DNA of 64,000 bases from NCBI GenBank assembly GCA_964431545.1, contig CAYSLC010000001.1, forward strand, positions 44,386 to 108,385, in the 5' to 3' direction. How positions within the stretch are numbered: the first letter of the stretch is position 1; each line of letters starts with the position of its first letter. Both the position numbers and the translations under genes were made by a program. Below are positions 6,101 to 51,639 of this stretch, in pieces. The notes under the pieces were generated by a model. It was given only the letters and a program-made list of their open reading frames with translations. It had not been told where the DNA came from and did no database searches. Origin of the DNA: an uncultured Desulfobacteraceae bacterium. Lineage in GTDB: Bacteria > Desulfobacterota > Desulfobacteria > Desulfobacterales > JAABSP01.

Positions 6101-6495
6101 AGGCCGCCCTATCCCTGGAGATGGAGCTGCACCACGGACCCGGAGACCTGGAAGCGTTGCTGGAGGACCTCTGCGAAAGCCACCGCCGCCTGGTGGCGGT
6201 CATCGAGGAGAGGGAGCCCGCGCCGGCGGCCCCTCCATCCCCGGAGGAGGAACGGAAACGCCCCCTGCCCCGGACCCTTCCCCCCATGGTCCGGGAACTC
6301 CACCGGAGCCTGATCGAGGGGGAACTCCCCCCGGAGACGATGCTGGCCGAAATCAAGCGGCTCATGAAGGGCCTCGGCCATCAGGACCGCCTCAACCGCC
6401 TGGGGGATCAGATCCGTCGGTCCCGGATGAAGGAGGCCCGGAACATCCTCGCCACCATCGCCTGGTCCCTGGGCATCTCCCTGGACGGAGAGTGA
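3145..6495 (+). CDS. hybrid sensor histidine-kinase-like protein (TM, PAS, HisKA-like, HATPase, 2x receiver, HPt-like)
   Basis: Track ORF 3031..6495. The GTG at 3031 abuts its GGAG with no spacer. The TTG at 3145 has AAGGGAG 8 nt upstream, so I prefer it. Domains read from the sequence: TM helix LIVSLGLTLGLVSLIVIPLGAVLWF; a PAS region; H-box-like GYEIRTPINAILG; N-box LIHLVDNAVKFT; G-boxes DTGLGIP and GLGPGL. The receivers have LLLVDWRMPGMDG and AVLMDIQMPRMGG. The C-terminal HPt-like segment reads LLRGLKGAAGNLAA. Confidence 0.85.
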   Translation: MSESGPTSSDPRGDGFLPGEAHAASAARRLIVSLGLTLGLVSLIVIPLGAVLWFKVAAPPPPAPEAYIDFIAGCLKPALREGDMAAVQRMGRLLIEDEIVFSLELTDAEGTPYLSIEKSTFGEDFDSSMGFQDVRILTEAGKTLARLRVTVLPPDRALLGRQALYLALGCTVLSLAALVFLAGRWVQVTIERPLNRLADGLGNALADSEGPPVRGVVHREFLPLARELKRMVDRAGERLGTLRAAEWKYRSVFETAEKGMFQGTEEGRLIRINPAFAAMLGYDDPEEAMDRIGEAAHRMYATFRDSDEIRHRLREQGRVTGYETELVDRSGRPFRVVLNIRAALDPHGNIRYYEGCVTDISARSERESRFTEQAEAEAENRVRAELVGEVGYEIRTPINAILGLAGILLKTGTTAAQRDYLSKIDASARIMRGVVEEFVRSSEEDEPPRIESRPFGLRHLMERLSDIFAEKTAKKHLEMITTVDDDVPDALEGDPPRLEQVLIHLVDNAVKFTAGGEVVIRVSVRDIRADRAVLGFSIRDTGLGIPSDQLARLFTPGNGDGRRARLSGLGPGLVACKRLIELMDGEIEVETQPDQGSTFFFTARFGVSADAPAPDQALPPGLRGLRVAVVDDNAAVCGMLEGLLTRFNFDPLCLRSGEAALGFLDAEGAAPDLLLVDWRMPGMDGIEFTRRVRRRFQRRDLPIVLMAEMGAEEMAERAAAAGVDGVLLKPVKPSILFDTVMEVFGPRVMEAFSEGGGEGNLSEVVERIRGIRVLLVEDHAINRQVAARILSGADILVETAGDGREAVEKVAAAGAGEIPPFDAVLMDIQMPRMGGLAAAGAIREDPRFADLPIIAMTAHTLPRDRRRSLEAGMNDHVTKPIDEEALFRTLARWVNGGEGDPPSEAASRRSGEEALREVLDTAQVLGRLGGNRLLFDKLLRDFVADHGDADRRIRAALEKEDEDQALGLLRGLKGAAGNLAAREVHQAALSLEMELHHGPGDLEALLEDLCESHRRLVAVIEEREPAPAAPPSPEEERKRPLPRTLPPMVRELHRSLIEGELPPETMLAEIKRLMKGLGHQDRLNRLGDQIRRSRMKEARNILATIAWSLGISLDGE

Positions 6496-6508
6496 TCCGG
6501 GGTCGGAT

Positions 6509-8014
6509 CTATTCCACGAAGCCGTGTTCGGGATCCCACCGCCGGATCAGGATCTCCTCCGGAAACGCCCGGGGTTTGTAGAGGGATTTCCCCAACAGGA
6601 GCCGGAGGCATTCCTGGATGCTCTCGGAGATGGTGGGGTGGGGGTAGATCAGCTTGAGCACGTCGGCCACCCCCTTGCCCTGGTCCATGAGGTGGGCGAT
6701 GGAGACGATGGTGCTGGAGACCTGGGGGCCGGCGGCCCGCATCCCCAGGATGGTACCGGCCGCGTCGTCGCTGACCAGGATCTTGACAAACCCGTTCAGC
6801 GCCCGCATGGCGATGGCCCGGTTGAGGAGTACATTGGAGTAGTAGGCGACCCGGTAGGGGATCTTCTTCTTCTGGCACGCCTTCTCGTTGAGGCCCACGG
6901 CGGCCACCGCCGGGTGGAAGAACATGACGGTGGACATGTTGCTGTAGTTCAACGGCCACCGGGACCGGTCGAACATGTGCTTGACGGCGTGGCGGCCCTC
7001 CATCTCGGCGATGTTGACCAGGGCGGGGTGGCGGATCACGTCTCCCACCGCGTAGATGGATTCCGCCACCTTGCAATGGTCGTCCGTGTCGAGGTGGCCC
7101 CGTTCGCCGGGACGGATCCCGGCCCGGTCCAGATCGAGGGGGGCGAGGCGGGGGTCCCGGCCGATGGAGATCAGGACCATGTCCACCTCCACCACCCGGG
7201 CGTGGCCGTCGGCGAAATCGAGGACCACCTCCAGGTGGTCCCCGCGTTTCACGATGTCCTTGAGGATGGCCGAATGGATGATCTTGACCCCGTTGCGCTC
7301 CAGGCAGCCGCCGACAAAGGCGCTGACATCCTCGTCCTCGTAGGGGATGATCCGCTCCTGGTGATCCACCAGATAGACCTTGGTCTGCCCGAAGTTGGAG
7401 AAGATGGTGGCGTACTCGCACCCGATGATCCCGGCGCCGATGATCATCAGCCGCTTGGGGAACCGGGATAGGCCCAGGATGCCGTCGGAGTTGAGGATCC
7501 GCTCCTGATCCACGGCGATCCCCTCAAAAGCCCTCGGCTTGGAACCGGTGGCGATGAGGAAGTACCGGGCCTGGATCTCCTCTCCCTCTCCGTCCGGATA
7601 ATCGATCCGGAGGCGGTCCGGGGCGGTGAACGCCCCCCACCCCCGTTTGAGGGTCAGGGAGCCGGGGCCGTCCCAGCGGGGCCGGGAGAAGGTCTCGATC
7701 TGGGAGAGCATCTGGTACTGCTTCTCCTTGACCGCCTGCATCACCGTGGTCCGCATGGCCGAGAAGTCCACCGACAGGCCGGTCGCCCGGTAGCCCCGGT
7801 CCACCTTGGCGGCGATGGCGTAATCCTTGGCCAGCTCCCACATGGTCTTGGAGCCCAGGGCCCCCCACATGACGCCGGCGCCCCCGATCTCGTCCCCCTC
7901 CACGATGCAGACGTGTTTGCCGAGATCCAGGGCCCGGGTGGCCGCGGCGAATCCGCCGGGTCCGCAGCCGATGATGCAAAGATCGAAGGGTTGGTGCGAT
8001 GAGGATGTCGTCAT
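6509..8014 (-). CDS. FAD/NAD(P)-dependent pyridine-nucleotide-disulfide-oxidoreductase family protein (LpdA-like, lacks the redox-active Cys pair)
   Basis: 501 aa. FAD GxGxxG motif DLCIIGCGPGG; NAD site MIIGAGIIGCE; C-terminal HPTISE dimer-interface motif. The position of the GGTCLNxGCIPSK disulfide reads GGAGVMWGALGSK. Confidence 0.8.
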   Translation of the reverse strand: MTTSSSHQPFDLCIIGCGPGGFAAATRALDLGKHVCIVEGDEIGGAGVMWGALGSKTMWELAKDYAIAAKVDRGYRATGLSVDFSAMRTTVMQAVKEKQYQMLSQIETFSRPRWDGPGSLTLKRGWGAFTAPDRLRIDYPDGEGEEIQARYFLIATGSKPRAFEGIAVDQERILNSDGILGLSRFPKRLMIIGAGIIGCEYATIFSNFGQTKVYLVDHQERIIPYEDEDVSAFVGGCLERNGVKIIHSAILKDIVKRGDHLEVVLDFADGHARVVEVDMVLISIGRDPRLAPLDLDRAGIRPGERGHLDTDDHCKVAESIYAVGDVIRHPALVNIAEMEGRHAVKHMFDRSRWPLNYSNMSTVMFFHPAVAAVGLNEKACQKKKIPYRVAYYSNVLLNRAIAMRALNGFVKILVSDDAAGTILGMRAAGPQVSSTIVSIAHLMDQGKGVADVLKLIYPHPTISESIQECLRLLLGKSLYKPRAFPEEILIRRWDPEHGFVE

Positions 8015-20799: not shown

Positions 20800-21366
20800 A
20801 TGAAATCAAAGAGGGTAAAGGAATTGATGGTGCCGCTTTCCGAGTACGCCACTGTTTCGAAAGAGGCCACATTGTTTCAGGCGGTACAGGCGTTGGAAAA
20901 GGCCCAGGAGGAGTTCGATCAGACGCGGTACCGCCATCGGGCGGTGCTGATCTACGATGAGAACGATGCTATCGTCGGCAAGATCAGCCAGAACGACATC
21001 CTCCGGGCCTTGGAGCCCAAGTACGAACAGCTCGGCGACCCCAATTCCCTTTCCCGCTTCGGCTTTCCACGGACCTTTCAGAAAACGATGATGGAACAGA
21101 TGCAGCTCTGGGACAAGCCGTTGCGGGATATTTGCCGCAAGGCCGCCGACCTCCAGGTGAAAAGTTTCATGTATACGCCCCAGGATGGAGAGTACGTTCC
21201 CGAGGATGCGACCCTCGACGAAGCCATCCACCAGCTGGTGATGGGACGGCACCAGTCCCTTCTGGTCACCGAGGGGAAAAAGGGCAAGCGGATCGTGGGC
21301 ATCCTGCGCCTCACGGATGTCTTCAAGGCGGTATCCGAGGTCATGGCCGAGTGTGAACTGAAATAG
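20800..21366 (+). CDS. CBS-domain-pair protein
   Basis: An ATG at 20800 follows GAGAGGAGG. The two CBS-like halves are VKELMVPLSEYATVSKEATLFQAVQAL and VKSFMYTP..ATLDEAIHQLVMGRHQSLLVTE. It is a paralogue of 31685..32236. Confidence 0.75.
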   Translation: MKSKRVKELMVPLSEYATVSKEATLFQAVQALEKAQEEFDQTRYRHRAVLIYDENDAIVGKISQNDILRALEPKYEQLGDPNSLSRFGFPRTFQKTMMEQMQLWDKPLRDICRKAADLQVKSFMYTPQDGEYVPEDATLDEAIHQLVMGRHQSLLVTEGKKGKRIVGILRLTDVFKAVSEVMAECELK

Positions 21367-21410
21367 AAGACCGAAAACGCAGCTGTTCGGGAACGGGAGG
21401 GGTATTACAA

Positions 21411-22874
21411 ATGGCAAACAACGAAAATTCGAGTTTCAACTGGAACAGATTGGTCTTCATGCTCACCGGCGTGGTCCTCTTTACCGTTGTCTATTTCTCT
21501 CCGCCCTGGCCGGACGCCGTGGATCCGCTCGGAGAACGTTTCGTCCTGTCCCGGGAGGGCAAAGGCGCCCTGGCGGTCTTCCTGCTGGCCGGCACCTGGT
21601 GGGTCTTCGAAGTGGTCCCCATCGGTGTGACCAGCCTGGCCATCGGCGTTCTCCAGGCCCTCTTCATGATCCGGCCCGCCAAGGTGGCCTTCAAGGATTT
21701 CATGGATCCATCGGTGATGTTCATCTTCGCCTCCATCGTCATCGGGCTGGTCTTCACCAAGACGGGATTGACCAAGCGGCTCGCCTACAAGATGTTGGAG
21801 ATCGTGGGGGAGAAGACCAGCATGATCTACCTGGGTTGCTTTCTGGTCACCTCGGCCCTGACCCACATCATGGCCCACACGGCGGTGGCGGCCACCATCT
21901 ATCCGCTTCTGCTCGCCATCTACAGCCTCTACGGGGAGGGGGACAAGCCGACGAAGTTCGGCAAGGGCCTTTTCATGGGGATGGCCTACGTGGCCGGCGC
22001 CGGGAGTATCGTGACCCTCCTCGGGGCGGCCCGGGGGGCCGTGGCCATCGGCTTTTACAAGGACATCGTGGGGGAGGAGATCACCTTCTTCGGTCTGACC
22101 TACTACATGTTTCCCATCGGGTGGATCATGACCTTCCTGCTGTGGGGGTTCTTCATGGTCTTCTTCAAACCCGAAAAGGAACGGATTCCGGGACTGCGGG
22201 AGCGGGCCAAGCTCCTCAACGCCGAGCTGGGGTCGATCACCCAAAAGGAGATCATCGCCGGTGTCATCGTGCTCCTCTGTATCATCACCATGTCCCTGCG
22301 CTCTTTCGTTCCGGCCTTGGCGGCCATCGACAAGACCGCCATCATCCTCATCTCCACCATCCTCTTTTTCATCTTCAAGATCCTCGACCTGGACGACCTG
22401 GAAGATATCCCCTGGAACATCATTCTGCTTTTCGCCGGGGCCATGAGCATCGGCTTCTGCCTCTGGGAGACCGGGGCCGCCAAGTGGCTCGCCGTCAACT
22501 GGCTGGTGATGTTCCAGGAGGCCAACTGGTTCATCTTCGTCATGGCCATCGCCTTCTTCGTGATGCTCATGACCAACTTCATCATGAACGTGGCGGCCAT
22601 CGCCATCTCCCTGCCCGTGGCCCTGGTGATCGCGCCCTATCTCAAGGTCGCGCCGGAGGTGATCCTCTTCGCCTCTCTGGTGGTGGCGGGCATGCCCTTC
22701 CTCCTGCTGGTGGGCGCGGCCCCCAACGCCATCGCCTACGACTCCAAGCAGTTCACCACCGGCGAGTTCTTCCTCTACGGGCTGCCGGCAAGCCTTCTGC
22801 TGATGGTGATCGTGGGCCTGGCCGCGCTGGTGATCTGGCCCATGATGGGGATGCCCGTCACGGTGCCCGGATAA
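21411..22874 (+). CDS. DASS/SLC13-type (ArsB/NhaD superfamily) anion:Na+ symporter
   Basis: 487 aa and polytopic. The repeated hairpin-helix architecture and the sequence style (..VVPIGVTSLAIGVL.., ..GAAPNAIAY..) are typical of divalent-anion:sodium symporters. Confidence 0.75.
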   Translation: MANNENSSFNWNRLVFMLTGVVLFTVVYFSPPWPDAVDPLGERFVLSREGKGALAVFLLAGTWWVFEVVPIGVTSLAIGVLQALFMIRPAKVAFKDFMDPSVMFIFASIVIGLVFTKTGLTKRLAYKMLEIVGEKTSMIYLGCFLVTSALTHIMAHTAVAATIYPLLLAIYSLYGEGDKPTKFGKGLFMGMAYVAGAGSIVTLLGAARGAVAIGFYKDIVGEEITFFGLTYYMFPIGWIMTFLLWGFFMVFFKPEKERIPGLRERAKLLNAELGSITQKEIIAGVIVLLCIITMSLRSFVPALAAIDKTAIILISTILFFIFKILDLDDLEDIPWNIILLFAGAMSIGFCLWETGAAKWLAVNWLVMFQEANWFIFVMAIAFFVMLMTNFIMNVAAIAISLPVALVIAPYLKVAPEVILFASLVVAGMPFLLLVGAAPNAIAYDSKQFTTGEFFLYGLPASLLLMVIVGLAALVIWPMMGMPVTVPG

Positions 22875-23526: not shown

Positions 23527-24177
23527 TCAATCGGGGAAGGCCACGGTGATCTTCCCGGCCCCGGCGTCGACCCGGACATCGGCGCTCAACAGCTCCATGA
23601 TCCGGGCCTCCCGTTCGCCGGGGAAGGCGGCGGCCGCCTCGGCCAGGGCGGTCAGGCCCGTGAAGGTCACGGCGGGTCCGTCCTCCCCCTGCTCCACGGC
23701 GATGGCCACGGACTTTCCGGCCCCGGCCGCGTCCAGGGACTGGTCGAGGCACTGGAACAGGAGGTTCTCGAGGAAATACGGGTTGGTGGTCACCGTCACC
23801 GGTGAGGGCGGCGGGGTGTAGGCCACGGTTACGTTCTTGTTCGAAATGAATCGGTTGGACAGGGAGACCACCAGACCCACGACATCCCCGAGATCCGTCT
23901 GGGAGACCGGTTCGTCCACGCTGTGGGAGAAGCGGTTCATCCGCCTGACGATATCGTCCGCCCGGCGTACTTGCTTCAGGAGATTCCCGGCCAATTTCTT
24001 CAGGCGTTCGGGCTCGATGGTCTTCCCCTTCTCCGCCATGAAACAGAAATCTTCCAGAAGCCCCGCGTTTTCGTTGAGGATGGCCAAGGCGTTCTTGATT
24101 TCATGGGAGATGGATGCCGAGATCTTTCCGAAGAACTGCAGACCGGTTTCGGCGAGGGGGTCGGGACGTTGTTCCAT
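23527..24177 (-). CDS. short cytoplasmic HisKA protein with degenerate ATP-binding domain
   Basis: 216 aa. The H-box ISASISHEIKNALAIL is present. The expected N-box reads NLLFQCLDQSL and no clear DxGxG/GxGxG boxes are seen (EQGEDGPAVTFTGLTALAE). Confidence 0.7.
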   Translation of the reverse strand: MEQRPDPLAETGLQFFGKISASISHEIKNALAILNENAGLLEDFCFMAEKGKTIEPERLKKLAGNLLKQVRRADDIVRRMNRFSHSVDEPVSQTDLGDVVGLVVSLSNRFISNKNVTVAYTPPPSPVTVTTNPYFLENLLFQCLDQSLDAAGAGKSVAIAVEQGEDGPAVTFTGLTALAEAAAAFPGEREARIMELLSADVRVDAGAGKITVAFPD

Positions 24178-24189
24178 GGACAGGCTCCT

Positions 24190-24543
24190 TTACTCGTTGA
24201 GGGCTTCTTCCATTCTTTCCACCAGGGCCTCCAGCTTGACCGGCTTCACAAGGTAGTGGGAGGCGTCCGTTGAACCGGCCCGGAAATCCTCTTCGGACCC
24301 ATGCCCCGTCATGAAGATGAACTTCATCTCCGGATGGCGTTCCCGAAGGCGTTTCATCAGGCTGATGCCGCCCATCTTGGGCATCTTTACGTCGAGCACC
24401 GCCACATTGTAGTTCTTTTTTTCAGCCAGTTCCAGGGCCTCGTGTCCGGAAGTGGCCCAGTCCGCTTCGATCCCCCTGAAAGAGAGCCGCTCGGCCAGCG
24501 TGGCCACCAGCTCCCGTTCATCGTCCACCAGCAATGCAATCAC
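24190..24543 (-). CDS. single-domain response regulator
   Basis: GTG start. ALLVDDE, VAVLDVKMPKMGG, IFMTGH and YLVKP are present. Confidence 0.9.
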   Translation of the reverse strand: MIALLVDDERELVATLAERLSFRGIEADWATSGHEALELAEKKNYNVAVLDVKMPKMGGISLMKRLRERHPEMKFIFMTGHGSEEDFRAGSTDASHYLVKPVKLEALVERMEEALNE

Positions 24544-24547
24544 CTTG

Positions 24548-26281
24548 TCATCCCTCCTTGCCCTCCGGGTTCACGGGCAGGGTCACCGTGAAGGTGGACC
24601 CCTTGCCCAGCTCGCTGTCGGCCTTGATCTTTCCCCCCAGCTCCTGGACCAGGTTATAGGTGATGGACAGGCCCAGGCCCGTGCCCCCCTTTGTGGAACG
24701 GGTGGTGAAGAACGGCTCGAAGATCCGTTCGAGGTTCTTCTTGGGGATCCCCTGGCCGTCGTCGGAAAAGGAGACCGACACCCATCGATCGTTTTTGGGC
24801 CGGACCGCCACCGTCAGTGAGCCGCCCTCCTTGATGAAGGAGAAGGCGTTGTTGACCAGATTCAGAAAGATCTGCTGGAGCTTGCCCCGGTCGCTCTCGA
24901 TCTCCGGCATCTCGTCGGCCACCTCCAGGGTGACGGAGATGGACCGGTACTCCGCCTCCTTCTGGACGAACCCCAGAACCTCCTCTATGATCGGCCGGAG
25001 CTTCACCCTGCCGAGCGCCGATTCTTGGTGCCGGGCGAAGGAGAGCACCCTTTTGGTGATGGTTCCGCACCGCTCCACGGAGTGAAGGACCGAGTCGACC
25101 AGTCCCAGCAGCCGGGGGTCCTCTTTGTATTCGGGTTTGTAGGTGAAGAAGTCCTTGATGAGTCCCGCCTTTTCGTAGATGATCTGGAGCGGGTTGTTGA
25201 TCTCGTGGGCCACTCCGGCCGCCATCCGGCCGATGGAGGCCATCTTGTTGGCGTACTCCACCTCATGCAGGGCCATGACCCGTCGCCGATCGGCCGTGTA
25301 GATGTTGTTGACCAGATAGGTGGCCATGCCGATGATCACCACCAGGATGAAAGTGATGCTCAGCCCCAGAAAACCGATGATCTTCCGGCGCGTCTGGTAC
25401 CAGGAGTGCATCAGCTCCTCCTTGTCCTTGATCACCATCAGAATGAAGGGGGTGTCGAGGATATAGGCGTATCCCACCAGGAGGGGCCCGTCGTCGGGCC
25501 GGTCCTTCTGGAAGACCTGGGTCTTTTCCGAAAACCGGGGGACCTCGAAATCGATCTTCTCCAGCACCTCCCAGCCGCAGTCGAGGCAGGGGGTCTGGAG
25601 AATCCCCTCCCGGTTGATGATGATGGCCGCGCCGCTTCCCATCACCTGCAACTGGTGGAGAAGGAGGTTGAACCGCTCCAGGTCCACCGAGGCCCGGAGC
25701 ACGAAAAACGAGCCGCTCGGCAGGTCGTGTTTTACGGCGATGACGAAGTGCGGGGTCCGCCGGTACCCCAAAAAGACGTCGCTGATGTAATGGCCCCGCT
25801 CGGCCACCTCCCGGAACCACTCCTGGCCGCTGTAGTTCTTCCCCTCCAGGGAGTGGGGCCCCACGTAGGTCTGCTGGAGGCCCTGGGCGTCGATGACCCC
25901 GAGGTCGGCGAAGCCGCCCAGCCCCTTTTTCAGATTCTCCAGAATGGTCGACAGCCGTTCCGGGTTCCGGAGCGAGGCCAAGGTGTTGTCCCGGACGATG
26001 AATTCCAGGGCGAAGCGGCGCTCCTCCAGAAAGAAGGTGACCGTCCTGCGGGTGTTGGAGACGAACCGGGAGGTTCGCAGGATGATCTCCGACTCCGTGG
26101 CCTTTCGGGTGACGGCGTAATCGGCGAAGGTGATGAAGATGAGGGGAAGCAGGACCACGACGGAGACGAAGATCACCGCCTGGTACCAGATGCGCCGGAA
26201 ATCGAACAGGCGCGCGTAATGGCCGGCGGCGGCGTCCTCGTGGTCCCAGAACCGGGGTTTGATTCGATCGAAAAAGGACAT
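24548..26281 (-). CDS. Cache-type periplasmic sensor histidine kinase
   Basis: 577 aa. Two TM helices flank a ~270-aa extracytoplasmic domain. H-box AAGVAHEINNPLQII, N-box LNLVNNAFSF, G-boxes DDGQGIP and GGTGLGLSI. Confidence 0.9.
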   Translation of the reverse strand: MSFFDRIKPRFWDHEDAAAGHYARLFDFRRIWYQAVIFVSVVVLLPLIFITFADYAVTRKATESEIILRTSRFVSNTRRTVTFFLEERRFALEFIVRDNTLASLRNPERLSTILENLKKGLGGFADLGVIDAQGLQQTYVGPHSLEGKNYSGQEWFREVAERGHYISDVFLGYRRTPHFVIAVKHDLPSGSFFVLRASVDLERFNLLLHQLQVMGSGAAIIINREGILQTPCLDCGWEVLEKIDFEVPRFSEKTQVFQKDRPDDGPLLVGYAYILDTPFILMVIKDKEELMHSWYQTRRKIIGFLGLSITFILVVIIGMATYLVNNIYTADRRRVMALHEVEYANKMASIGRMAAGVAHEINNPLQIIYEKAGLIKDFFTYKPEYKEDPRLLGLVDSVLHSVERCGTITKRVLSFARHQESALGRVKLRPIIEEVLGFVQKEAEYRSISVTLEVADEMPEIESDRGKLQQIFLNLVNNAFSFIKEGGSLTVAVRPKNDRWVSVSFSDDGQGIPKKNLERIFEPFFTTRSTKGGTGLGLSITYNLVQELGGKIKADSELGKGSTFTVTLPVNPEGKEG

Positions 26282-26365: not shown

Positions 26366-26830
26366 TCAGTCCTCGTCTTTGTCCATGATGTCCTTGGCGG
26401 TGTCGAACTCGCCGGCCTCGGCAAAGGTGGCCGCCATGATCGATTTGTCGATCTTTTTCTTGTAGGCGGTGCGGATGGTGCTGACGATGGTCTCGATATC
26501 GGCCGGTTTCTGAAGATACTCGAAGGCGCCCAGCTTTCGGGCTTCCTTTTCATCTTTCTCCGAACCATGGCCGGTGAGCATGATCACCTGAACCTGGGGA
26601 TAGGCCTTCTTGACCCGCCGTAAAACCTCCATGCCGTCGATTCCGGGCATCTTGAGGTCGAGAATCATGACATCCGGAACTTCGTCCTTCACGACCTTGA
26701 GGGCCTGTTCCCCGTCATAAGCGATGTCCGAACCGAGGTTCCGCATCTCGATCCGCTCGGACAGGGTCTTGACGAACTCCTCTTCGTCGTCCACCAAAAG
26801 GACCTTGATGTTTTCCTTATCTTTTCCCAT
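26366..26830 (-). CDS. response regulator (receiver) with C-terminal MAATFAEAGE-motif tail
   Basis: The start is taken at MGKDKENIKVLLVDDE (ATG 26830). DVMILDLKMPGIDG, IMLTGH and YLQKP are present. The tail reads KSIMAATFAEAGEFDTAKDIMDKDED. Confidence 0.85.
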   Translation of the reverse strand: MGKDKENIKVLLVDDEEEFVKTLSERIEMRNLGSDIAYDGEQALKVVKDEVPDVMILDLKMPGIDGMEVLRRVKKAYPQVQVIMLTGHGSEKDEKEARKLGAFEYLQKPADIETIVSTIRTAYKKKIDKSIMAATFAEAGEFDTAKDIMDKDED

Positions 26831-27386
26831 CGTTCTCTCCCTTCTGATCTCCCGTGAGTCGGGTGGTTTTTCCCTCGGCTCCGGCATCGCCGGACGGCGC
26901 CGCGGGGGACTTTTCGATGAACGCCAGGGCCGTTTCCGGCTCCCCAGCCTCCGCGAAGGCGGCGGCCATCATGGCGTCCTGGTAGCGCTTGAAAAACGAC
27001 CTCTTTGTCCGCTCCCCGGACGTCTTGCGCTGGTAGGCCTCCTTGATGCGCTCCACCAGCTTCTTGACATCGAAGGGGACGAAGAAATCGTCGAAGGCCC
27101 CCAGTTTCATGCCCTCGATGGAGAGGGAGAGCTGGGCGGCCCCGTTGAGCAGGATGACCTCGGTCAGCGGGTTGAGCTTCTTGATCTGCCGTAGCAGGGT
27201 CAGCCCCTCCTCCCTCAACCCGCCGAGGCTCAACAGCACCACGTCGATCTTATGATGTCGGATCGTTTTCTTCAACCCTGCCGCGCCGTCGGACTCGAAT
27301 ACCCGAAACGGATCGGTCTCCAGGCGCTGTTGCAGACTTCGCCTGAAGAACCGGTCCGAATCGATGATCAGAAGGTTGATCCCCAT
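26817..27386 (-). CDS. pseudo-receiver protein with C-terminal MMAAAFAEAGE-motif tail
   Basis: The fold is receiver-like (MGINLLIIDSD..). However, the acceptor position reads VVLLSLGG (Asp to Ser), the Thr position reads ILLNG and the Lys position reads FFVPF. The tail reads DAMMAAAFAEAGEPETALAFI. Confidence 0.8.
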   Translation of the reverse strand: MGINLLIIDSDRFFRRSLQQRLETDPFRVFESDGAAGLKKTIRHHKIDVVLLSLGGLREEGLTLLRQIKKLNPLTEVILLNGAAQLSLSIEGMKLGAFDDFFVPFDVKKLVERIKEAYQRKTSGERTKRSFFKRYQDAMMAAAFAEAGEPETALAFIEKSPAAPSGDAGAEGKTTRLTGDQKGENDGKR

Positions 27387-27415
27387 GAGTGAGCGCGGTT
27401 GCCCGCTACATACGG

Positions 27416-27598
27416 CTACAGGTTCGCGACGACGTAGCTGTAGCGGACGCCGCCCAACCCGACGGTATCGAGGAACTCCTCCAGCGTCGGCTTGGCCTTG
27501 GGGGCCTCCATGAACTCCCGGGCTGTGTCATGGCAGTCCGCCTCGGCGAAGGTTGCGGCCATAAAGGTCTTTTCCAGCTTCTCAAAAAACTTTTTCAT
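27416..27598 (-). CDS. 60-aa protein consisting largely of the MAATFAEA motif
   Basis: An AAGGAGA RBS lies 6 nt upstream of the ATG, and the gene is directly downstream of a consensus sigma-54 promoter. Sequence: MKKFFEKLEKTFMAATFAEADCHDTAREFMEAPKAKPTLEEFLDTVGLGGVRYSYVVANL. Confidence 0.65.
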   Translation of the reverse strand: MKKFFEKLEKTFMAATFAEADCHDTAREFMEAPKAKPTLEEFLDTVGLGGVRYSYVVANL

Positions 27599-27660: not shown

Positions 27661-27676
27661 AGCAAGAAGGGTGCCA
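27661..27676 (-). promoter_or_regulatory. sigma-54 (RpoN) -24/-12 promoter
   Basis: The minus strand reads TGGCAC-CCTTC-TTGCT, an exact match to TGGCAC-N5-TTGCW. It lies about 60 nt upstream of the 27598 start codon, in a 197-nt low-GC gap. Confidence 0.75.
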
Positions 27677-27795: not shown

Positions 27796-28173
27796 CTATG
27801 TATCAGGCTTCCCCGACGCCTCCTCGATCTTCGAAAGGAGCTGATTAATATCGATGGGCTTCATCATGTAGTCGAAGGCCCCCTGTCGCATCCCCTCGAT
27901 CCCCTCTTTGGTGGACCCCCGTCCGGTGAGCAGGATCACCGGCATGTCCGGATGTTCGGACTTGATCCGTTTGAGCGTCTCCAGGCCGCCGATGCCCGGC
28001 ATCATCAGGTCGAGGACCACCAGGTCCGGCGGGTCGTCGGAGACCATGGGCAGCGCGGTCTCCCCGTCTCCGGCCGTCCGCACGGCCATTCCCCTGAGTT
28101 CCAGCCGTTCGGCCAGGGTGGTGACAAACTCCTTTTCATCGTCCACAAGAAGCAGTTTCATTTGGGCCATCAA
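27796..28173 (-). CDS. single-domain response regulator
   Basis: LLLVDDE, LVVLDLMMPGIGG, ILLTGR and YMMKP are present. The start overlaps the upstream kinase stop by 4 nt. Confidence 0.9.
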   Translation of the reverse strand: MMAQMKLLLVDDEKEFVTTLAERLELRGMAVRTAGDGETALPMVSDDPPDLVVLDLMMPGIGGLETLKRIKSEHPDMPVILLTGRGSTKEGIEGMRQGAFDYMMKPIDINQLLSKIEEASGKPDT

Positions 28174-29912
28174 CCGATCTCCTCCGGGGACTCGTTCCCC
28201 GCTGTGGCCTTCTTCGGCAGATAAACGGTAAAGGTGGCGCCCTCTCTCTCCTTGCTGTGGACCTTGATGTCGCCACCCAGTTTCTTAACGATTCCGTAGG
28301 TGATAAAGAGCCCCAGCCCGGTGCCCCCCGATTTTTTCGTGGTGAAAAAGGGGTCGAAGATCCGCTGGATCGTCTCCTCGGACATGCCGGAGCCGTTGTC
28401 CTGGATGGAGATCCCCAGGGTCTCGGGATCCTCCTCCCAGGTGGTGACGGAGATCCGCCCGCCCTCGGATACCGCCCCCAGCGCGTTGGTCATGATGTTG
28501 AGAAAGACCTGCTGAAGCTGGCCCAGATCCGATGAGATCCGGGGGAGGTCTTCGGCCAGCTGGAGGCGAAGGTCGATGTTCCGGTAGATCATCTCCTTTT
28601 CCAGGAATCCCGCCACATCCCGGATCAGGAGGTTGAGGTCGAGTTCCTCGAAGTGGACCTCCTTTCTGCGGGCGAAGCCCAGAAGCCGATGGGTGATGGT
28701 CTTGCACCGGCCCACCGAGTCGAGCACCCCTTCCAGAAGCTGTTCGAACTTCTCCTTTTTGTCGAAATCCTTGGAGAAAGCGACCAGATCCTGGAGCAGT
28801 CCGGCCTTTTCGTTGATGATGGCCAGGGGGTTGTTGATCTCATGGGCCACACCGGCGGCCAGCCGGCCGATGGAGGAGAGCTTCTGGTTCTGCTCCAGCT
28901 CGTGGATGGCGTTCTCCCGTCGTTCGTCCGCCTCGCGGATGTTGGTCACCAGCACGTCGGAGAGCTTGATGACGATGACCATGATGACCACCACGCTGAC
29001 GAAAAAGATGAAGAACATCTCCCCCTGGAGCGTCATCCAGGTCCTAAGGACCAACGCCCTGGGCTTGACCACCACCAGTTGAAAGCCGGGCTTTTCGAGG
29101 CCCACGTACGCGATGGTCACCTCCCTCCCCTGGGGATCGAGGGTGTCGAGCACATGGGGGCCGAAGCTCTGGGAGGGGAGATCGAAGGGGCATTTTTCCA
29201 GGAGTTCGCCGTAGAAACGGGACCGGGTCTGCAGGATCCCCTCCTGGTTGATGATGAAGGCGTCCGCCTCGGGGTCGAGCCCCATGGCCGAGATGAGGTC
29301 GTAGAACCGGTTGGTGTCGATGGTGGCCCGGAGGACCCAGGTGCGGCCCTCCTCCTCCACCCGCTGGACGGCGATGGCGATGTGGGGAAACTTCCGATAC
29401 CCCATGAAGACGTCGCTGATGTAGGTGTCCCGGATGACCACCTCCTGGAACCATTCCTGGCCCGAATAGTCCTTGCCCAGCAGGGAGTAAGGCCCGGCGT
29501 AGCTGATCTGCGTGCCGGCGCTGTTGATCAGTCCGATGTCCACGAACCCCTCGAACTCCATCTTGAGGACCCGGAAGATCCGGGCAAGGGTCCGCTCGCC
29601 GGCGAGCTGGTCAAAGGAATAGGCCGAGGCGACGAACCGGACCGTGGAGAGCCGTTCCTCCAGGAAGAGTTCGAACGAATGGCGGGTCTTGCTCAGCAGG
29701 ACCCGGAGAGGGTCGATGACTTCGTTTTTGATGCTCTCCCGGTACTGGAAATGGTTGATTCCCGCCATGATCCCCAACGGCAGGATGGTGACGACCAGCA
29801 TGGTCACGGTGATGTTCCGCCGGAGTTCCAGATACCGCCGGGGGGAGTCGCTCACCTTATGGATGCTCAGAAACCCTCTGAGGATGGCGCTCGGCCAGTG
29901 CCTAACATTCAT
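28170..29912 (-). CDS. Cache-type periplasmic sensor histidine kinase (paralogue of 24548..26281)
   Basis: The ATG at 29912 has GGAGGA 6 nt upstream, so it is preferred over the track start at 29966. H-box AAGVAHEINNPLAII, N-box LNIMTNALGA, G-boxes DNGSGMS and GGTGLGLFI. Confidence 0.9.
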   Translation of the reverse strand: MNVRHWPSAILRGFLSIHKVSDSPRRYLELRRNITVTMLVVTILPLGIMAGINHFQYRESIKNEVIDPLRVLLSKTRHSFELFLEERLSTVRFVASAYSFDQLAGERTLARIFRVLKMEFEGFVDIGLINSAGTQISYAGPYSLLGKDYSGQEWFQEVVIRDTYISDVFMGYRKFPHIAIAVQRVEEEGRTWVLRATIDTNRFYDLISAMGLDPEADAFIINQEGILQTRSRFYGELLEKCPFDLPSQSFGPHVLDTLDPQGREVTIAYVGLEKPGFQLVVVKPRALVLRTWMTLQGEMFFIFFVSVVVIMVIVIKLSDVLVTNIREADERRENAIHELEQNQKLSSIGRLAAGVAHEINNPLAIINEKAGLLQDLVAFSKDFDKKEKFEQLLEGVLDSVGRCKTITHRLLGFARRKEVHFEELDLNLLIRDVAGFLEKEMIYRNIDLRLQLAEDLPRISSDLGQLQQVFLNIMTNALGAVSEGGRISVTTWEEDPETLGISIQDNGSGMSEETIQRIFDPFFTTKKSGGTGLGLFITYGIVKKLGGDIKVHSKEREGATFTVYLPKKATAGNESPEEIG

Positions 29913-30258
29913 GGGATTTCCTCCTGGGGCACAGAATGCTCCCCGGTTCCAGGCGCCCCGCCACATAGGCGGACAGGGCCGCCTTCCACGCCCCGATCAC
30001 GCCGTCCAACAAAGAGACCCGTTTCCACTGGAGGTACTGGTGGTACTCCTCCTCGATGCCGCCGCAGATCACGGTGCCGATCTCCTCTTTGAGGACCATG
30101 TGGCACAGCTGTTCCGCCGAGGCCTGGGAGACCACGATGATCCGGTCCTCCCGAACGTCCCCTTGGCTGTCCAGGACGGCGATGAGGACCTCCGTCGCCA
30201 GGTCGAACCGGGGGGCCACATCGTCGCCGAAAAGGGGGATCAACACCTTGTCGCTCAT
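29902..30258 (-). CDS. NifX/NifB-C-terminal-type (dinitrogenase FeMo-cofactor-binding fold) domain protein
   Basis: An ATG at 30258 overlaps the EBP stop (ATGA). MSDKVLIPLFGDDVAPRFDLATEVLIAVLD...AEQLCHMVLKEEIGTVICGGIEEEYHQYLQWKRVSLLDGVIG has the pattern of that small alpha/beta family. Confidence 0.65.
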   Translation of the reverse strand: MSDKVLIPLFGDDVAPRFDLATEVLIAVLDSQGDVREDRIIVVSQASAEQLCHMVLKEEIGTVICGGIEEEYHQYLQWKRVSLLDGVIGAWKAALSAYVAGRLEPGSILCPRRKSHEC

Positions 30259-31685
30259 GGGGAGTCGATCCCGTGCCGCTTCATCTTCCGCCAGAGGGTC
30301 GATCTGCCCCATCCCAAAATCTCCGCGGCCCGGCTCCGTTTGCCTCCGGCACGAACCAGGGCGTCGAGGATCATCCGCCGTTCCACCTCGGCCCAGGTCT
30401 CCGTCCCGCCGCTCCCCTCCGCGCCGGTAAGTCGGGGCCGTTCCCCGGCCGGGGGGCGGTCCCCTCCGGCCTCGCCGGCGGGGACCGGCCGGGGTTCGGT
30501 GAGGTAGGCCGGCAGGTGGGCCGGCAGGATCCGGGATTCCCGGCAGATGTTGACGGCGTACTCGACGATGTTCCGCAGCTCCCGGACGTTGCCGGGGTAG
30601 TCGTACTGATTCAGGAGGGTCAGAGCCTCCCGGGAATACCCTTCCACGGCCTTGTTGAACTTCCCCGCGAAGCGGTTGAGGAAATGGTCGAGGAGGAGGC
30701 GGATATCGAGTTCCCGGTCCCGCAGTGGCGGAAGCTTGACCCGCACCACGTTGAGGCGGAAGAGGAGATCCTCCCGGAATCGCTTCTCATGGACCATCGT
30801 CTCCAGATCCCGGTGGGTGCCGGCGATCACTCGGACGTCGGCCTGGAACCCCCGGGTACTGCCCAACGGATAGACCACCTGGTCGTCCAGGAAGGTGAGC
30901 AGCTTCACCTGGAGGGTCGGGGGGAGATCCCCGATCTCCGTGAGAAAGAGGGTGCCGTTGTGGGCCAGTTGGAACCGCCCCGGCTTGTTCTCCACCGCGC
31001 CGGTGAACGCCCCTTTCCGGTGGCCGAAGAGTTCCGACTCCAGAAGGGTTTCCGGGAGGGCCCCGCAGTTGACCTTGATGAAAGGGCCCTTGGCCCGGCC
31101 CGAGGCCCCGTGGATCGCCTCGGCCACCAGATCCTTGCCGGTCCCGGTCTCGCCGGTGATCAGGACCGAGGAGTCGCTCTGGGCCACAGCGGGAAGAACC
31201 GAAAAGACCTTCTCCATGCTGGGGCTCTTGCCGATGATGGTCCCGAAACTGTAGGCCTGGCTCGACCGGGCGTCCATCTCCCCGTACGGCCGGAGGTCCT
31301 CCACCGTTTCGATGAATCCCAAGGGATCCTCCCCGTCGCCGGCGATGGGGGCGACGGTGACGCGGACCGGGATCCGCTGCCGCTCCCGGTTGATGATGTC
31401 CGTGTCGACGCTGACGGGGTTGGTGTCCGCGGTCATCCCCCGGGCCGGACACGCGGTGACGCAGGCCCGGCTTCGGAGGACATGGTGGCAGGGGATCCGG
31501 TAGGTCGCGGCGGTCTCCTGGGAGAAGCCGGTCACGGCGCACAGGGACCGGTTCAATAGGGTGACATGGAGTCCGTCGTCGAGGATCGCAATGCCCATGG
31601 GGATCTCGTCGAGGAGCGCCTGGAGGGTGACCGGGGCGTGAAAAAGCCCCTCCACGCGGGGGATGCACCGGTCCTCAGGGGCCAC
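30255..31685 (-). CDS. sigma-54-dependent transcriptional activator (PAS - AAA+ - Fis HTH)
   Basis: Walker A GETGTGKD, the sigma-54 contact loop GAFTGA and a C-terminal HTH (AAEILGWGRSTLWRKMKRHGI). The N-terminal PAS-like domain carries C..CHHVLRSRACVTAC. GTG start. Confidence 0.9.
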   Translation of the reverse strand: MAPEDRCIPRVEGLFHAPVTLQALLDEIPMGIAILDDGLHVTLLNRSLCAVTGFSQETAATYRIPCHHVLRSRACVTACPARGMTADTNPVSVDTDIINRERQRIPVRVTVAPIAGDGEDPLGFIETVEDLRPYGEMDARSSQAYSFGTIIGKSPSMEKVFSVLPAVAQSDSSVLITGETGTGKDLVAEAIHGASGRAKGPFIKVNCGALPETLLESELFGHRKGAFTGAVENKPGRFQLAHNGTLFLTEIGDLPPTLQVKLLTFLDDQVVYPLGSTRGFQADVRVIAGTHRDLETMVHEKRFREDLLFRLNVVRVKLPPLRDRELDIRLLLDHFLNRFAGKFNKAVEGYSREALTLLNQYDYPGNVRELRNIVEYAVNICRESRILPAHLPAYLTEPRPVPAGEAGGDRPPAGERPRLTGAEGSGGTETWAEVERRMILDALVRAGGKRSRAAEILGWGRSTLWRKMKRHGIDSP

Positions 31686-32236
31686 TACTCCTCTTCTTCC
31701 AATAAGGCGTGGACCGCCAGCAGCAGATCGGCGTCCCGGAGGACCCCCACCAGTTGCTTCCCCTCCAGGACGGGAAGCTTTGTGATCTTGTTTTTGAAGA
31801 TCATCCGGAGGGCGTCCATGAGCCCGGCGTCCGCCTGGATCGTGCCCCGGATCTTGAGCATGATATCCTTGACCTTGACCTCGGCGTTCTTCCGGACCCG
31901 GGCCCGGAACCCCAGATTGGCGTCGTCCAGATCCGAGGCCCCCGCCTCCGCGAACGCGGCCGAAACCCCGGCGGCGGCCAGCCGCTGGCTGAGCCCCCCC
32001 GCCACCTCCGGGATCAGGGTCCTCAGAATGGTGGCGAAGTCCAGAATCCCGGCCAGGTTGTCCTTATCGTCCATGGCCAGGACCGTCCGATGGCCGGCCT
32101 CGGTGCACGATTCGGCGTCCAGCTCGCAGTAGGAGCCCCGGAGAACGGCGACGGCCTCCCGCAGGGGGGCCTCCTTGGAAACGGTGGAGTAGTCTTTGAT
32201 CGGGATCATGATCTCCCGGACTGTTTTTTTCAACAT
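31685..32236 (-). CDS. CBS-domain-pair protein with inter-domain AAFAEAG insert
   Basis: The ATG at 32236 has AGGAGG 9 nt upstream. The N-terminus MLKKTVREIMIPIKDYSTVSKEAPLREAVAVL parallels the 20800 CBS protein. The linker contains GVSAAFAEAGASDLDD. Confidence 0.75.
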   Translation of the reverse strand: MLKKTVREIMIPIKDYSTVSKEAPLREAVAVLRGSYCELDAESCTEAGHRTVLAMDDKDNLAGILDFATILRTLIPEVAGGLSQRLAAAGVSAAFAEAGASDLDDANLGFRARVRKNAEVKVKDIMLKIRGTIQADAGLMDALRMIFKNKITKLPVLEGKQLVGVLRDADLLLAVHALLEEEE

Positions 32237-32323: not shown

Positions 32324-32758
32324 TCAGTGGCCCCCGGCGATCAGACCGCTCGCCGCGGCGGTCAGGATGACGGCCTCCAGAATGGCCAATACCGCGTAGA
32401 CCTTGTCGTTGTTTTTCAGGAGGGTGGGCACGATTCTCAGATAGCAGATGATCGTGACCCCCGCCAGGATGGCCACCCCGATGAAGTTGAGGAAGTCGCC
32501 GTACTTGAGCATGCCGAGCCAGGCCCACCCGGAGTGGATGTTGGCGTCATGCAGATATTGATCCACGTTCTTTGACCAGTGCCGGGAGATCTCATCCAGG
32601 GCGATATAGGGGTCCATGATGCCGAAGATGTAGATGGCGTAGGTGATGAAGAGAATGAGCAATCCGATGTACATCCCCTTTTCGAGAATGGCGGCATAGA
32701 TCACCTGTTCCGGGGAGGCCTCCAGGGAGACTTCAGAGCTTTCCGGTTTATCCGTCAT
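32324..32758 (-). CDS. small integral membrane protein (about 3 TM helices), unknown function
   Basis: 144 aa. The hydrophobic helices are MYIGLLILFITYAIYIFGI, FLNFIGVAILAGVTIICYL and VYAVLAILEAVILTAAASGLI. It is tightly downstream of TauE. Confidence 0.6.
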   Translation of the reverse strand: MTDKPESSEVSLEASPEQVIYAAILEKGMYIGLLILFITYAIYIFGIMDPYIALDEISRHWSKNVDQYLHDANIHSGWAWLGMLKYGDFLNFIGVAILAGVTIICYLRIVPTLLKNNDKVYAVLAILEAVILTAAASGLIAGGH

Positions 32759-32810
32759 GTTGTTTTCCTCCTGTATTTTTTAAACTTTTTCCATCTGTGT
32801 TGGCGCGGGG

Positions 32811-33773
32811 CTATCCGAAAATGCCTTTCTGGAGTGCCTTGAGCCCGGCAAAGGCGAGGATGGCGATGACCATCCACCGGATGAAGGTGGGCTTTGCGAT
32901 TTTGAGCAGCCGGACCCCGACAAATGAGCCGAGCATGATCCCCACCAGGGAGGGGACCACCATCAACGGTATCACACATCCTTTGTTCATGTAGATCCAC
33001 GCGGCCGAGGTGTCTGTAATGGAGAGGAGAAACTTGCTGGTGGCCACGCTGATCTTCAAAGGAGCCCCCATGAGCAGATTGAGCACGGGAACATTGGCCC
33101 AACCGGCCCCCAGGCCGAACATGCCGGCCATGACGCCGATGATGACGAACAGGCACAACCCCAAAGGGGTCCGGTGAACCTTCCAGTGGATAGTCTTGCC
33201 GGTACTCGCCTCCTGGTAGACGCCGTAAATCCGGAGGACGGAGGAAAGCGGGTCCGCCTCCGGCACATCCGGCAGCTCCGATTTCTTGGCGGTGAGCATC
33301 AGCGCGCAGATCCCCAGGATGGTGGCGCCCAGGGCGATCTGGACGATCTGGGTGGGCAGGGCGAGCCCGATCATGGCGCCGATGATGGCACAGGTGGAAG
33401 CGATCAGGGCCACGGGGATGGCGAGCCGCAGGCTGGCCAGGTTGGCCTTGAGGAGCCCCGGACCCGCCGCCAGTGCTCCGGACAGGGCCACCAGCAATCC
33501 CGTCCCCCGCACGAAGTCGAGGTGAAACGGGAAAAATCCGCTGATGATGGGCACAAAGAGGACGCCGCCGCCCACGCCGCCCAGGACGGCCAGAATCCCC
33601 ATGACAAAGGTGACGATAAAGAGCAGCAGCGGCCAGAACCACCAGGCATGGGTATCCGGCGCGGGGGCCGGCGCGGCATCCGCCGGCGGGTTGGCCAGAG
33701 CGGTCGATCCCGCCAGGATCATCCCCATAAGGAGTACCAGTGCGACAGCCCAGAACATTCGGTTTTTCCCCAT
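32811..33773 (-). CDS. TauE/SafE-family anion (sulfite/sulfonate-type) exporter
   Basis: The start is taken at MGKNRMFW (ATG 33773) after AAGGAGGAA. It is polytopic, with GGVGGGVLFVPI and GLGAGWANVPVL repeats typical of DUF81/TauE. The upstream 43 track codons are not supported. Confidence 0.75.
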   Translation of the reverse strand: MGKNRMFWAVALVLLMGMILAGSTALANPPADAAPAPAPDTHAWWFWPLLLFIVTFVMGILAVLGGVGGGVLFVPIISGFFPFHLDFVRGTGLLVALSGALAAGPGLLKANLASLRLAIPVALIASTCAIIGAMIGLALPTQIVQIALGATILGICALMLTAKKSELPDVPEADPLSSVLRIYGVYQEASTGKTIHWKVHRTPLGLCLFVIIGVMAGMFGLGAGWANVPVLNLLMGAPLKISVATSKFLLSITDTSAAWIYMNKGCVIPLMVVPSLVGIMLGSFVGVRLLKIAKPTFIRWMVIAILAFAGLKALQKGIFG

Positions 33774-33999
33774 CGATTCCTCCTTGAAAAAGATTTTGTG
33801 AGAGCTGATTGTCTTCTTGAGCCGTGATCTTCGGCCGTGTCTGTCCGATGGAAAATGGGAACTCCCCGCCCGCCTCGGTCGATGGCGGACAAGGGCCATC
33901 AAATACTGAATGTTCCAAAACGTGTCAAGAAAAATGTGAATGCCCCTGTAGGGAATGAACCGCGTTCGGGGGCCGGGGACCCCACTCGGTACGGTCCCC

Positions 34000-51616: not shown

Positions 51617-51639
51617 CCATCCCCCTTACGGTTCGTCTA

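Follow-up and report, generated by a model that had tools for sequence, protein, structure and literature searches.

How does a receiver that ends without an output domain pass its signal on? Neither single-domain response regulators nor pseudo-receivers have an obvious output, and how they relay what they receive has long been a gap in the understanding of two-component signalling. The question is raised by a signalling cluster within 64,000 nucleotides (nt) of DNA from an uncultured Desulfobacteraceae bacterium (contig CAYSLC010000001.1; this whole stretch is referred to as the window), in which three consecutive genes for a 60-aa protein, a pseudo-receiver and a receiver share an alanine-rich peptide with the core FAEAGE or FAEADCH. 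The initial annotation had described this peptide as a segment of about 18 residues without a known domain assignment, and had interpreted it as a short amphipathic helix that is appended to output-less receivers and also expressed on its own. Here we describe the element, its distribution and the proteins it may connect.

Translation of the three genes yielded the peptides IMAATFAEAGEFDTAKDIM for the receiver, AMMAAAFAEAGEPETALAFI for the pseudo-receiver and TFMAATFAEADCHDTAREFM for the 60-aa protein, exactly as annotated (Table 1). The segment thus recurs in three genes, but the similarity is longer than first noted: it spans approximately 28-32 residues and begins about 10 residues upstream of the annotated segment, as in [FY]xxK[LI]EK. 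A motif profile was built from 87 diverse instances, with the three window copies among the training rows. Both receiver-like carriers are clear members of the receiver family, matching PF00072 with 101 bits (receiver) and 51.4 bits (pseudo-receiver) against a cut-off of 30.2. The receiver has the phospho-acceptor aspartate at the end of beta3 (DVMILDLKMPG); in the pseudo-receiver a serine stands in its place (DVVLLSLGG) and the acidic pocket is degenerate (IIDSD). The final ~40 residues of the pseudo-receiver are of low complexity and poorly conserved.

Table 1. Positions of the hairpin copies, their carrier proteins and associated features in the window
Feature	Position	Strand	Basis or remark
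Receiver, 154 aa, single-domain response regulator with C-terminal hairpin tail	26366..26830	-	Pfam Response_reg E=5e-29
Hairpin copy 1, FAEAGE, type I (..KKKIDKSIMAATFAEAGEFDTAKDIMDKDE)	26372..26458	-	48.7 bits against motif profile
Pseudo-receiver, 189 aa, C-terminal hairpin tail and disordered end	26817..27386	-	Pfam Response_reg E=1.4e-13
Hairpin copy 2, FAEAGE, type I (..FFKRYQDAMMAAAFAEAGEPETALAFIEKS)	26901..26996	-	44.8 bits; kept in six orthologues
60-aa protein, type II hairpin (FAEADCH) and C-terminal VGLxGVRYxYVV module	27416..27598	-	family of 12 clusters
Second conserved module, C-terminal 22 residues (LEEFLDTVGLGGVRYSYVVANL)	27419..27484	-	L39, F42, L43, G47, L48, V51, Y53, Y55, V56 invariant or near-invariant
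Hairpin copy 3, FAEAGE family, type II (KFFEKLEKTFMAATFAEADCHDTAREFMEA), in the 60-aa protein	27494..27589	-	60.7 bits
Sigma-54 promoter consensus TGGCACCCTTCTTGCT, 63 nt upstream of the ATG of the 60-aa protein gene	27661..27676	-	only zero-mismatch match in the window
PAS-AAA+-HTH sigma-54 activator	30255..31685	-	domain matches; GAFTGA at aa 225; Cys triad
AAFAEAG heptapeptide, linker between two CBS domains; doubtful as module copy	31928..31966	-	5.8 bits over 7 profile positions
dCache kinase	28170..29966	-	
Receiver upstream of the 60-aa protein gene	27796..28173	-	
Second dCache kinase	24548..26281	-	
Receiver downstream of the second kinase	24190..24543	-	
Degenerate HisKA protein	23527..24177	-	

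The recurrence of this peptide is due neither to chance nor to low complexity. In a six-frame translation of the complete window, FAEA occurs four times, each time in one of the four genes annotated with the peptide. The pattern A[ATV]FAEA[GD] was likewise seen four times and not once in any of 60 second-order Markov simulations, which gave a mean of 0.63 for bare FAEA. These counts together with the profile scores rule out a common Ala/Glu segment, a possibility that had been raised with the initial annotation. A DNA repeat is ruled out as well. The copies are identical to each other at 33 of 48 nucleotides and use the same codon for only 5-6 of 11 identical residues; the use of different codons for identical residues shows that conservation acts at the protein level, as had been proposed. 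The same gene neighbourhood is present around the 60-aa protein gene in six metagenome-assembled genomes (MAGs), and all six orthologous operons carry the module in all three genes, with many synonymous changes across its invariant core.

To which structure does the peptide correspond? Models were calculated with AlphaFold2 (AF2) for a natural two-copy protein (P0016, alignment of 37 sequences) and for the window receiver, both as monomers. In the P0016 model (mean predicted local distance difference test, pLDDT, 74.9; predicted template modelling score, pTM, 0.43) helices are predicted at residues 2-19 and 23-30 and again at 34-58 and 62-69, so that in each motif a long helix runs up to FAEA and is connected by a turn of three residues (AGE or DCH) to a short second helix. 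Since the pTM is only 0.43, we regard the predicted secondary structure as credible and the tertiary packing as not trustworthy. A Foldseek comparison of the P0016 model with the PDB gave no match at E<=0.001, and the list of its fold matches, which is weakly enriched in tetratricopeptide repeat (TPR), MIT and ferritin-like helical proteins, was not relied on for the same reason.

The window receiver was modelled with higher scores (pLDDT 84.8, pTM 0.77) and shows the standard receiver fold. Its helix alpha5 is predicted to run unbroken from residue 112 to 138 through KKKIDKSIMAATFAEA; in the model, residues 139-141 (GEF) then form a turn and residues 142-150 another helix (pLDDT about 77-84). 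According to these models the motif is a helix-turn-helix hairpin of approximately 30 residues that is grafted on the output helix of the receiver. The proposed attachment to output-less receivers is supported, but the predicted element is a hairpin continuous with alpha5 and not a single appended helix. Among solved structures, the receiver model fits best to the Aquifex NtrC1 receiver with its linker helix (1ZY2; TM-score on the query, TMq, 0.82, rmsd 0.9, 130 columns), followed by 1NY5 and 4L4U (aligned over 130-134 columns). In these NtrC1/DctD receivers alpha5 also reaches well past the receiver fold, and its extension is a dimerising coiled-coil linker whose packing responds to phosphorylation. 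In contrast, the window receiver ends after the hairpin, has no AAA+ or DNA-binding domain and no Sigma54_activat match, and the hairpin of the module occurs on non-receiver proteins too.

The initial statement that the motif belongs to no known domain holds: scanning the window proteins and their relatives against Pfam and NCBIfam gave nothing above threshold for the module, a comparison of the motif profile with PDB sequences gave nothing below E=0.19, and a full-text literature search for the string FAEAGE returned one paper, which is unrelated. The nearest likeness is to TPR units (Pfam TPR_4, TPR_6, TPR_12 and TPR_14 were compared). Like these, the module is a unit of helix A, turn and helix B in the AF2 models and is present in one to four copies per protein; its small and large residues follow a spacing which we take to be that of TPR positions 7, 8, 11, 15, 20 and 24 (M-A..F...G....A...M). 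Weak matches at E<=0.1 were found with TPR_4 for 11 and with TPR_12 for 5 of the 87 instances. However, no instance reaches the Pfam threshold, the best being a relative with 26.4 bits for TPR_4 against a cut-off of 27, and neither the receiver-tail segment nor the three whole window proteins match any TPR model at E<=0.1. The second helix of the module is only 8-9 residues long, its copies are split by variable linkers of about 10-40 residues and do not form a contiguous 34-residue array, the FAEAGExxTA signature is far more rigid than any TPR consensus, and there is no significant TPR fold match (best E=2.4).

The commonest weak NCBIfam match is FimV_Cterm (TIGR03504; FimV/HubP), found for 13 of the 87 instances at E<=0.1 with a best E of 0.0014. 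This is likewise a solitary TPR-like hairpin at a protein terminus, and in FimV/HubP it serves protein-protein contact. Here too the differences prevail: scores reach at most 19.2 bits, where the cut-off is 30.65, none of the scanned window proteins or segments matches, and host proteins, taxa and contexts are other ones. The FimV structure 4MBQ ('TPR3 of FimV', 4MBQ/4MAL) aligns with a TM-score on the target (TMt) of 0.56 over 46 columns, which is not significant (E=7.7). The module resembles a truncated TPR unit and represents a previously unnamed member of the TPR-like helical-hairpin kind; whatever its function, a family model in Pfam or NCBIfam is warranted.

Scanning with the profile revealed a large family on receivers, pseudo-receivers, Usp-like proteins and small proteins. 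A search of a collection of 5.8 billion proteins gave 1,097 proteins at E<=10, the best-scoring of which are 57-105 residues long and contain one or two copies; an exhaustive search of 1.84 billion cluster representatives (50% identity) gave 1,553 at E<=0.001 and 308 at E<=1e-10. In a scan of one genome per species the module was matched in at least 598 stretches. The consensus is roughly [LF]-E-x-x-[FM]-x-A-[AV]-[TA]-F-A-E-A-G-E-[HFW]-[ED]-T-A-[RLK]-[EQ]-[IFM]-[ML]; among the 87 instances E18 and A25 are invariant, and A13, F16, A17 and A19 are present in at least 90%. The family of receivers with a tail comprises more than 100 clusters with approximately 70-90% identity over 88-100% of the query, and every member of about 150 aa that was inspected has the tail. 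Besides these receivers and the pseudo-receivers with a tail, recurrent architectures are two-copy small proteins ending either in KRDRxxPRPRxQLRA or in a VGLxGVRxxYG module, two-copy proteins with a long C-terminal helix, one to four copies preceding or inserted in a divergent Usp domain, a single copy preceding a small membrane protein, and fusions of the type REC-motif-REC (P0128, P0131, P0136 and P0149).

The small membrane protein has 112-117 aa, with one N-terminal hairpin and a conserved end ..FFFSFIHGAFASxLLxxLG[LI]EAKK. It adjoins a Usp-like hairpin protein and is encoded in L037 (6556-6894), L052 (6568-6909), L060 (5971-6324) and L061 (1753-2094); a homologue lacking the hairpin lies just upstream of a TauE permease in L011 (8515-8793).

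To see which carriers are encoded together, we took 59 loci from the matches listed and searched each of them with the profile (>=15 bits) up to 6 kb to the left and right of the copy through which it was found. They contain 140 module open reading frames (47 receivers or pseudo-receivers, 58 small proteins, 32 Usp-like proteins and 3 others), with at least two in 52 of the 59 loci and three in 29. Since these carriers have unrelated scaffolds, their co-occurrence is not explained by simple gene duplication. A copy on every member of the triad of small protein, pseudo-receiver and receiver is a widespread arrangement. We also considered whether the copy number per operon is fixed, with one copy 'moving' between small protein and pseudo-receiver, but this is ruled out by several loci that have a two-copy small protein and both receiver tails. 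Among the matches listed, the loci belong mostly to Thermodesulfobacteriota and Nitrospirota (Thermodesulfovibrionia) and in a few cases to Burkholderiales and Latescibacterota; two come from cultured organisms, Hydrosulfovibrio ferrireducens CB1MN and Nitratidesulfovibrio sp. HK-II. In a Nitratidesulfovibrio genome (L038) the gene order is NifX-like protein, kinase, receiver, HisKA-like protein, two-copy small protein and receiver with tail.

The 60-aa protein had been taken for a free-standing form of the motif, but it contains a second conserved module. It belongs to a family of 60-63 aa proteins with 57-100% identity, for which no Pfam or NCBIfam family was found at E<=0.1, and corresponds to the second half of the widespread two-copy proteins of about 100 aa. 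D21-C22-H23 of the hairpin are invariant throughout this family, and its second half is conserved equally with the hairpin half, as LxxFLxxVGLxxVRYxYVxA. The pattern of the second module is [FL]xxxVGLxGV[RQ]xxYGxV; it has no family name and is predicted by AF2 as a short helix followed by low-confidence coil. The module ends every class-B two-copy protein and is duplicated in L014 (6001-6243), P0354, P0371 and P0373. A pseudo-receiver in L009 (8379-8870) is without the hairpin and carries the VGL module at its C-terminus instead, showing that both modules move between the same partners. In the ~100-aa proteins type I (FAEAGE), type II (FAEA[DNG]C[HP] or FAExGL[HP]) and the VGL tail are joined in one chain; in the window operon type II and the VGL tail are on the 60-aa protein and the type I copies on the two receivers.

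The genes of the three carriers are located behind a sigma-54 promoter with the perfect consensus TGGCAC-N5-TTGCT; between this promoter and the preceding receiver gene lies a weak terminator-like hairpin. The equivalent site is conserved 5' of the small gene in L001, L005-L009 and many further loci, including every one of the six orthologues. In 572 kb of related loci the strict sigma-54 consensus was found 21 times on the gene strand versus 2 times on the opposite strand. The sigma-54 control that had been suggested for the small gene is thus supported by a perfect and conserved promoter, but a private promoter for a decoy gene is not what the arrangement indicates: the gap between the small gene and the pseudo-receiver gene is just 29 nt long, a terminator-like site was looked for in it on that strand and none was seen, and therefore the promoter probably drives the whole operon of small protein, pseudo-receiver, receiver and kinase. 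The stop codon of the pseudo-receiver gene and the start of the next receiver gene overlap by 14 nt.

A candidate for the activation of this promoter is encoded nearby. The PAS domain of the sigma-54 activator (enhancer-binding protein, EBP) contains a C-x8-C-x3-C triad CHHVLRSRACVTAC (aa 66-79, nt 31449-31490, minus strand). Ligands of the [4Fe-4S] cluster in OrpR of D. vulgaris are C52, C61 and C65 (PMC8359166), and the triad in the window protein has the same spacing. Judged by its sequence, this protein is probably a redox-sensing, OrpR-like activator, and it probably activates the promoter upstream of the small gene. The next gene (29902-30312) encodes the NifX-like protein, which weakly resembles the Nitro_FeMo-Co/ORP domain of MrpORP. 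Of the 59 loci, 42 encode the AAA+ domain of a sigma-54 activator within 6 kb, 48 a kinase catalytic domain and 25 a degenerate HisKA protein.

A degenerate fourth copy had been annotated in the linker of the CBS protein. The profile does not recognise it: the score is no better than that of an unrelated open reading frame (6112-6546), the similarity is limited to AAFAEAG, and we do not count it as a copy. The heptapeptide is kept as AAFAEA[GD] in CBS orthologues and is absent from the paralogous CBS protein beside the Na/sulfate symporter. A match of seven residues within the same operon is unlikely to arise by chance, and the heptapeptide may be a remnant or a helix-only version of the module. 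Overall, the initial interpretation is partly supported. It was right in spirit, as an unnamed interaction element on output-less receivers, and wrong in four details: a hairpin is predicted in place of a single helix, a second module is present in the small protein, the downstream operon probably shares the promoter, and the CBS copy lacks support.

What could the hairpins do? We tentatively favour, with slightly less than even confidence, a mechanism in which a hairpin on one protein pairs with a hairpin on another, so that the carriers of a locus form a complex that is sensitive to receiver phosphorylation. This reading is suggested by the repeats within single chains, the fusions of type I and type II, the copies on unrelated proteins of one locus and the placement at the end of alpha5. 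In each module a long amphipathic helix with ..MAA[TA]FAEA at its end is predicted to be followed by a three-residue turn (GE[HFWP] or DCH) and a short helix (xTAxEhh), and two hairpins would pack as a small helical bundle; one to four copies per polypeptide are as expected of units that pack on one another. In this way receiver, pseudo-receiver and 60-aa protein could be joined as homo- or hetero-oligomers. The analogy is to X-type four-helix docking bundles (PKA RII D/D, PKS docking domains), to which the likeness is one of proposed working only. As the first helix of the receiver hairpin is predicted to be a direct continuation of alpha5, the element that reports phosphorylation in NtrC1/DctD-type receivers, phosphorylation of Asp58 would change the partner engaged by the receiver tail. 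The 60-aa protein would contribute the single type II hairpin of the operon, its second module linking the complex to something further, and the set would be transcribed from the sigma-54 promoter, probably under control of the neighbouring OrpR-like Fe-S-type PAS activator.

Several points weigh against pairing. Both structure models were of monomers, and the two-copy model combines a low pTM with the lack of a significant fold match. Co-occurrence of carriers is equally expected if all copies bind one common receptor, and the strongly conserved surface-type residues (E, E/D and T) in FAEAGExxTA look like recognition of a fixed partner or ligand and less like a hydrophobic zipper. In addition, the number of copies per operon varies, with three in the window and two to four elsewhere, and 7 of the 59 loci have a single copy within 6 kb on either side. 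The main alternative is a docking tag, an explanation close to the initial docking or decoy idea, in which all copies bind one shared partner and the carriers compete for its site. We regard this as possible but rather doubtful. The extreme conservation of solvent-type signature residues, with E18 and A25 invariant, would be accounted for, as would the presence of several carriers per locus, which fits competition for one site. Candidate partners are the sigma-54 activator, in a feedback of the PspA-PspF type, the DHp bundle of a kinase or the degenerate HisKA protein, and a TauE-type permease; the first two groups are frequent neighbours in the loci, and genes behind sigma-54 promoters are the arrangement expected for negative feedback on the activator. 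However, no candidate receptor is common to all loci, tandem arrays of two to four copies in one small protein are more typical of mutually packing units, and in the closest solved structures the alpha5 extension, to which the first hairpin helix of the receiver belongs, is a dimerisation element.

The chemistry of the turn allows a different explanation, which we consider improbable, namely that the module is a sensor and not a connector and that the acidic turn (EAGE[H]E/D) or the Asp-Cys-His of type II would provide a site that binds a small ligand or a metal or that reacts with a redox-active or sulfur compound. The invariance of D21-C22-H23 in the 60-aa family agrees with such a site, and proteins with two copies often have a cysteine in the second one (FAEADCH, FAEANCH, FAEAGCP); the locus has a redox and sulfur flavour (OrpR-like Cys-triad activator, NifX/ORP-like protein, TauE and CBS genes) and the family is mostly confined to anaerobes. 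Yet the histidine is not conserved in type I, where GEH, GEF, GEW, GEY and GEP are all found, a sizeable share of type II copies has leucine in place of cysteine (FAEAGLH, FAESGLH), a hairpin with one cysteine cannot form a site alone, and no significant similarity to any metal-binding fold was detected. Least probable, and by a wide measure so, is a degradation or adaptor tag, that is, a terminal hairpin recognised by a regulated protease such as a REC-Lon fusion, by which the carriers would be removed together. The motif does lie at the C-terminus of receivers and at the N-terminus of Usp-like proteins, and a receiver-AAA-Lon protease fusion is encoded directly upstream of a hairpin gene pair in a Nitrospirae MAG (L010, 5510-7513, minus strand). 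But such a neighbour was seen in a single locus, many copies are internal ones (those within REC-motif-REC fusions, within Usp-like proteins or at the front of arrays), and a structured, highly conserved 30-residue hairpin is unlike known bacterial degrons. In the same L010 locus an NtrC-type sigma-54 activator is also encoded directly upstream of the hairpin gene pair, beside the Lon fusion.

Mutual pairing of the hairpins, our tentative preference, would have consequences beyond this operon. The module lies at the very point where a receiver signals whether it is phosphorylated, the end of alpha5, and could supply the output of output-less receivers; pairing would give a direct wiring rule for which proteins of a locus touch. 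If true, this rule would span many sigma-54-controlled loci in sulfate reducers and Nitrospirota and would provide a function for hundreds of 'hypothetical' proteins of 57-105 residues. In its most far-reaching form, which is speculative and rather unlikely to hold in full, the FAEAGE hairpins would be an unrecognised bacterial connector domain, in which type I, type II and the VGLxGVRxxYG module form a combinatorial pairing code. They would assemble locus-specific signalling complexes of receivers, pseudo-receivers, Usp-like proteins, small membrane proteins and micro-proteins, as a prokaryotic counterpart of SAM, PB1 and death domains that is switched on in strict anaerobes by redox-sensing sigma-54 activators.

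The genes surrounding the three carriers have a conserved order. On the minus strand of the window the first dCache kinase is followed by a receiver, the 60-aa protein, the pseudo-receiver, the receiver with the tail, the second dCache kinase, a further receiver and the degenerate HisKA protein (Table 1), and 5' of these signalling genes lie those for the CBS protein, the PAS sigma-54 activator and the NifX-like protein. The orthologous order is TauE, AF_1016, CBS, sigma-54 activator, NifX-like, kinase, receiver, small protein, pseudo-receiver and receiver, continued by second kinase-receiver (missing in L001) and then HisKA-like-receiver.

Two transporter sets flank the signalling cluster in the window (approximately 20800-22874, plus strand, and 32324-33902, minus strand). 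One consists of a second CBS protein and a Na/sulfate-type (DASS) symporter, the other of a TauE-family permease and an AF_1016/DUF1634-like partner. Both sets again adjoin the cluster in other genomes, and because they recur at this position, the arrangement suggests that the signalling system controls the transport of anions or sulfur compounds.

An AT skew of -0.50 at window positions 50500-52000 was also considered as part of the finding and rejected as unrelated. It is caused by an ordinary acidic, alanine- and proline-rich low-complexity stretch coded on the minus strand. Judging from the sequence, the stretch most likely encodes the N-terminal part of infB, after which comes the end of the gene upstream.

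A sigma-54-dependent operon of D. vulgaris, DVU2957-DVU2967, is annotated as 'transmembrane transport' and includes the sigma-54 activator DVU2960 (PMC4641369). This operon may be the Desulfovibrio counterpart of the window cluster and is regarded here as a candidate only.

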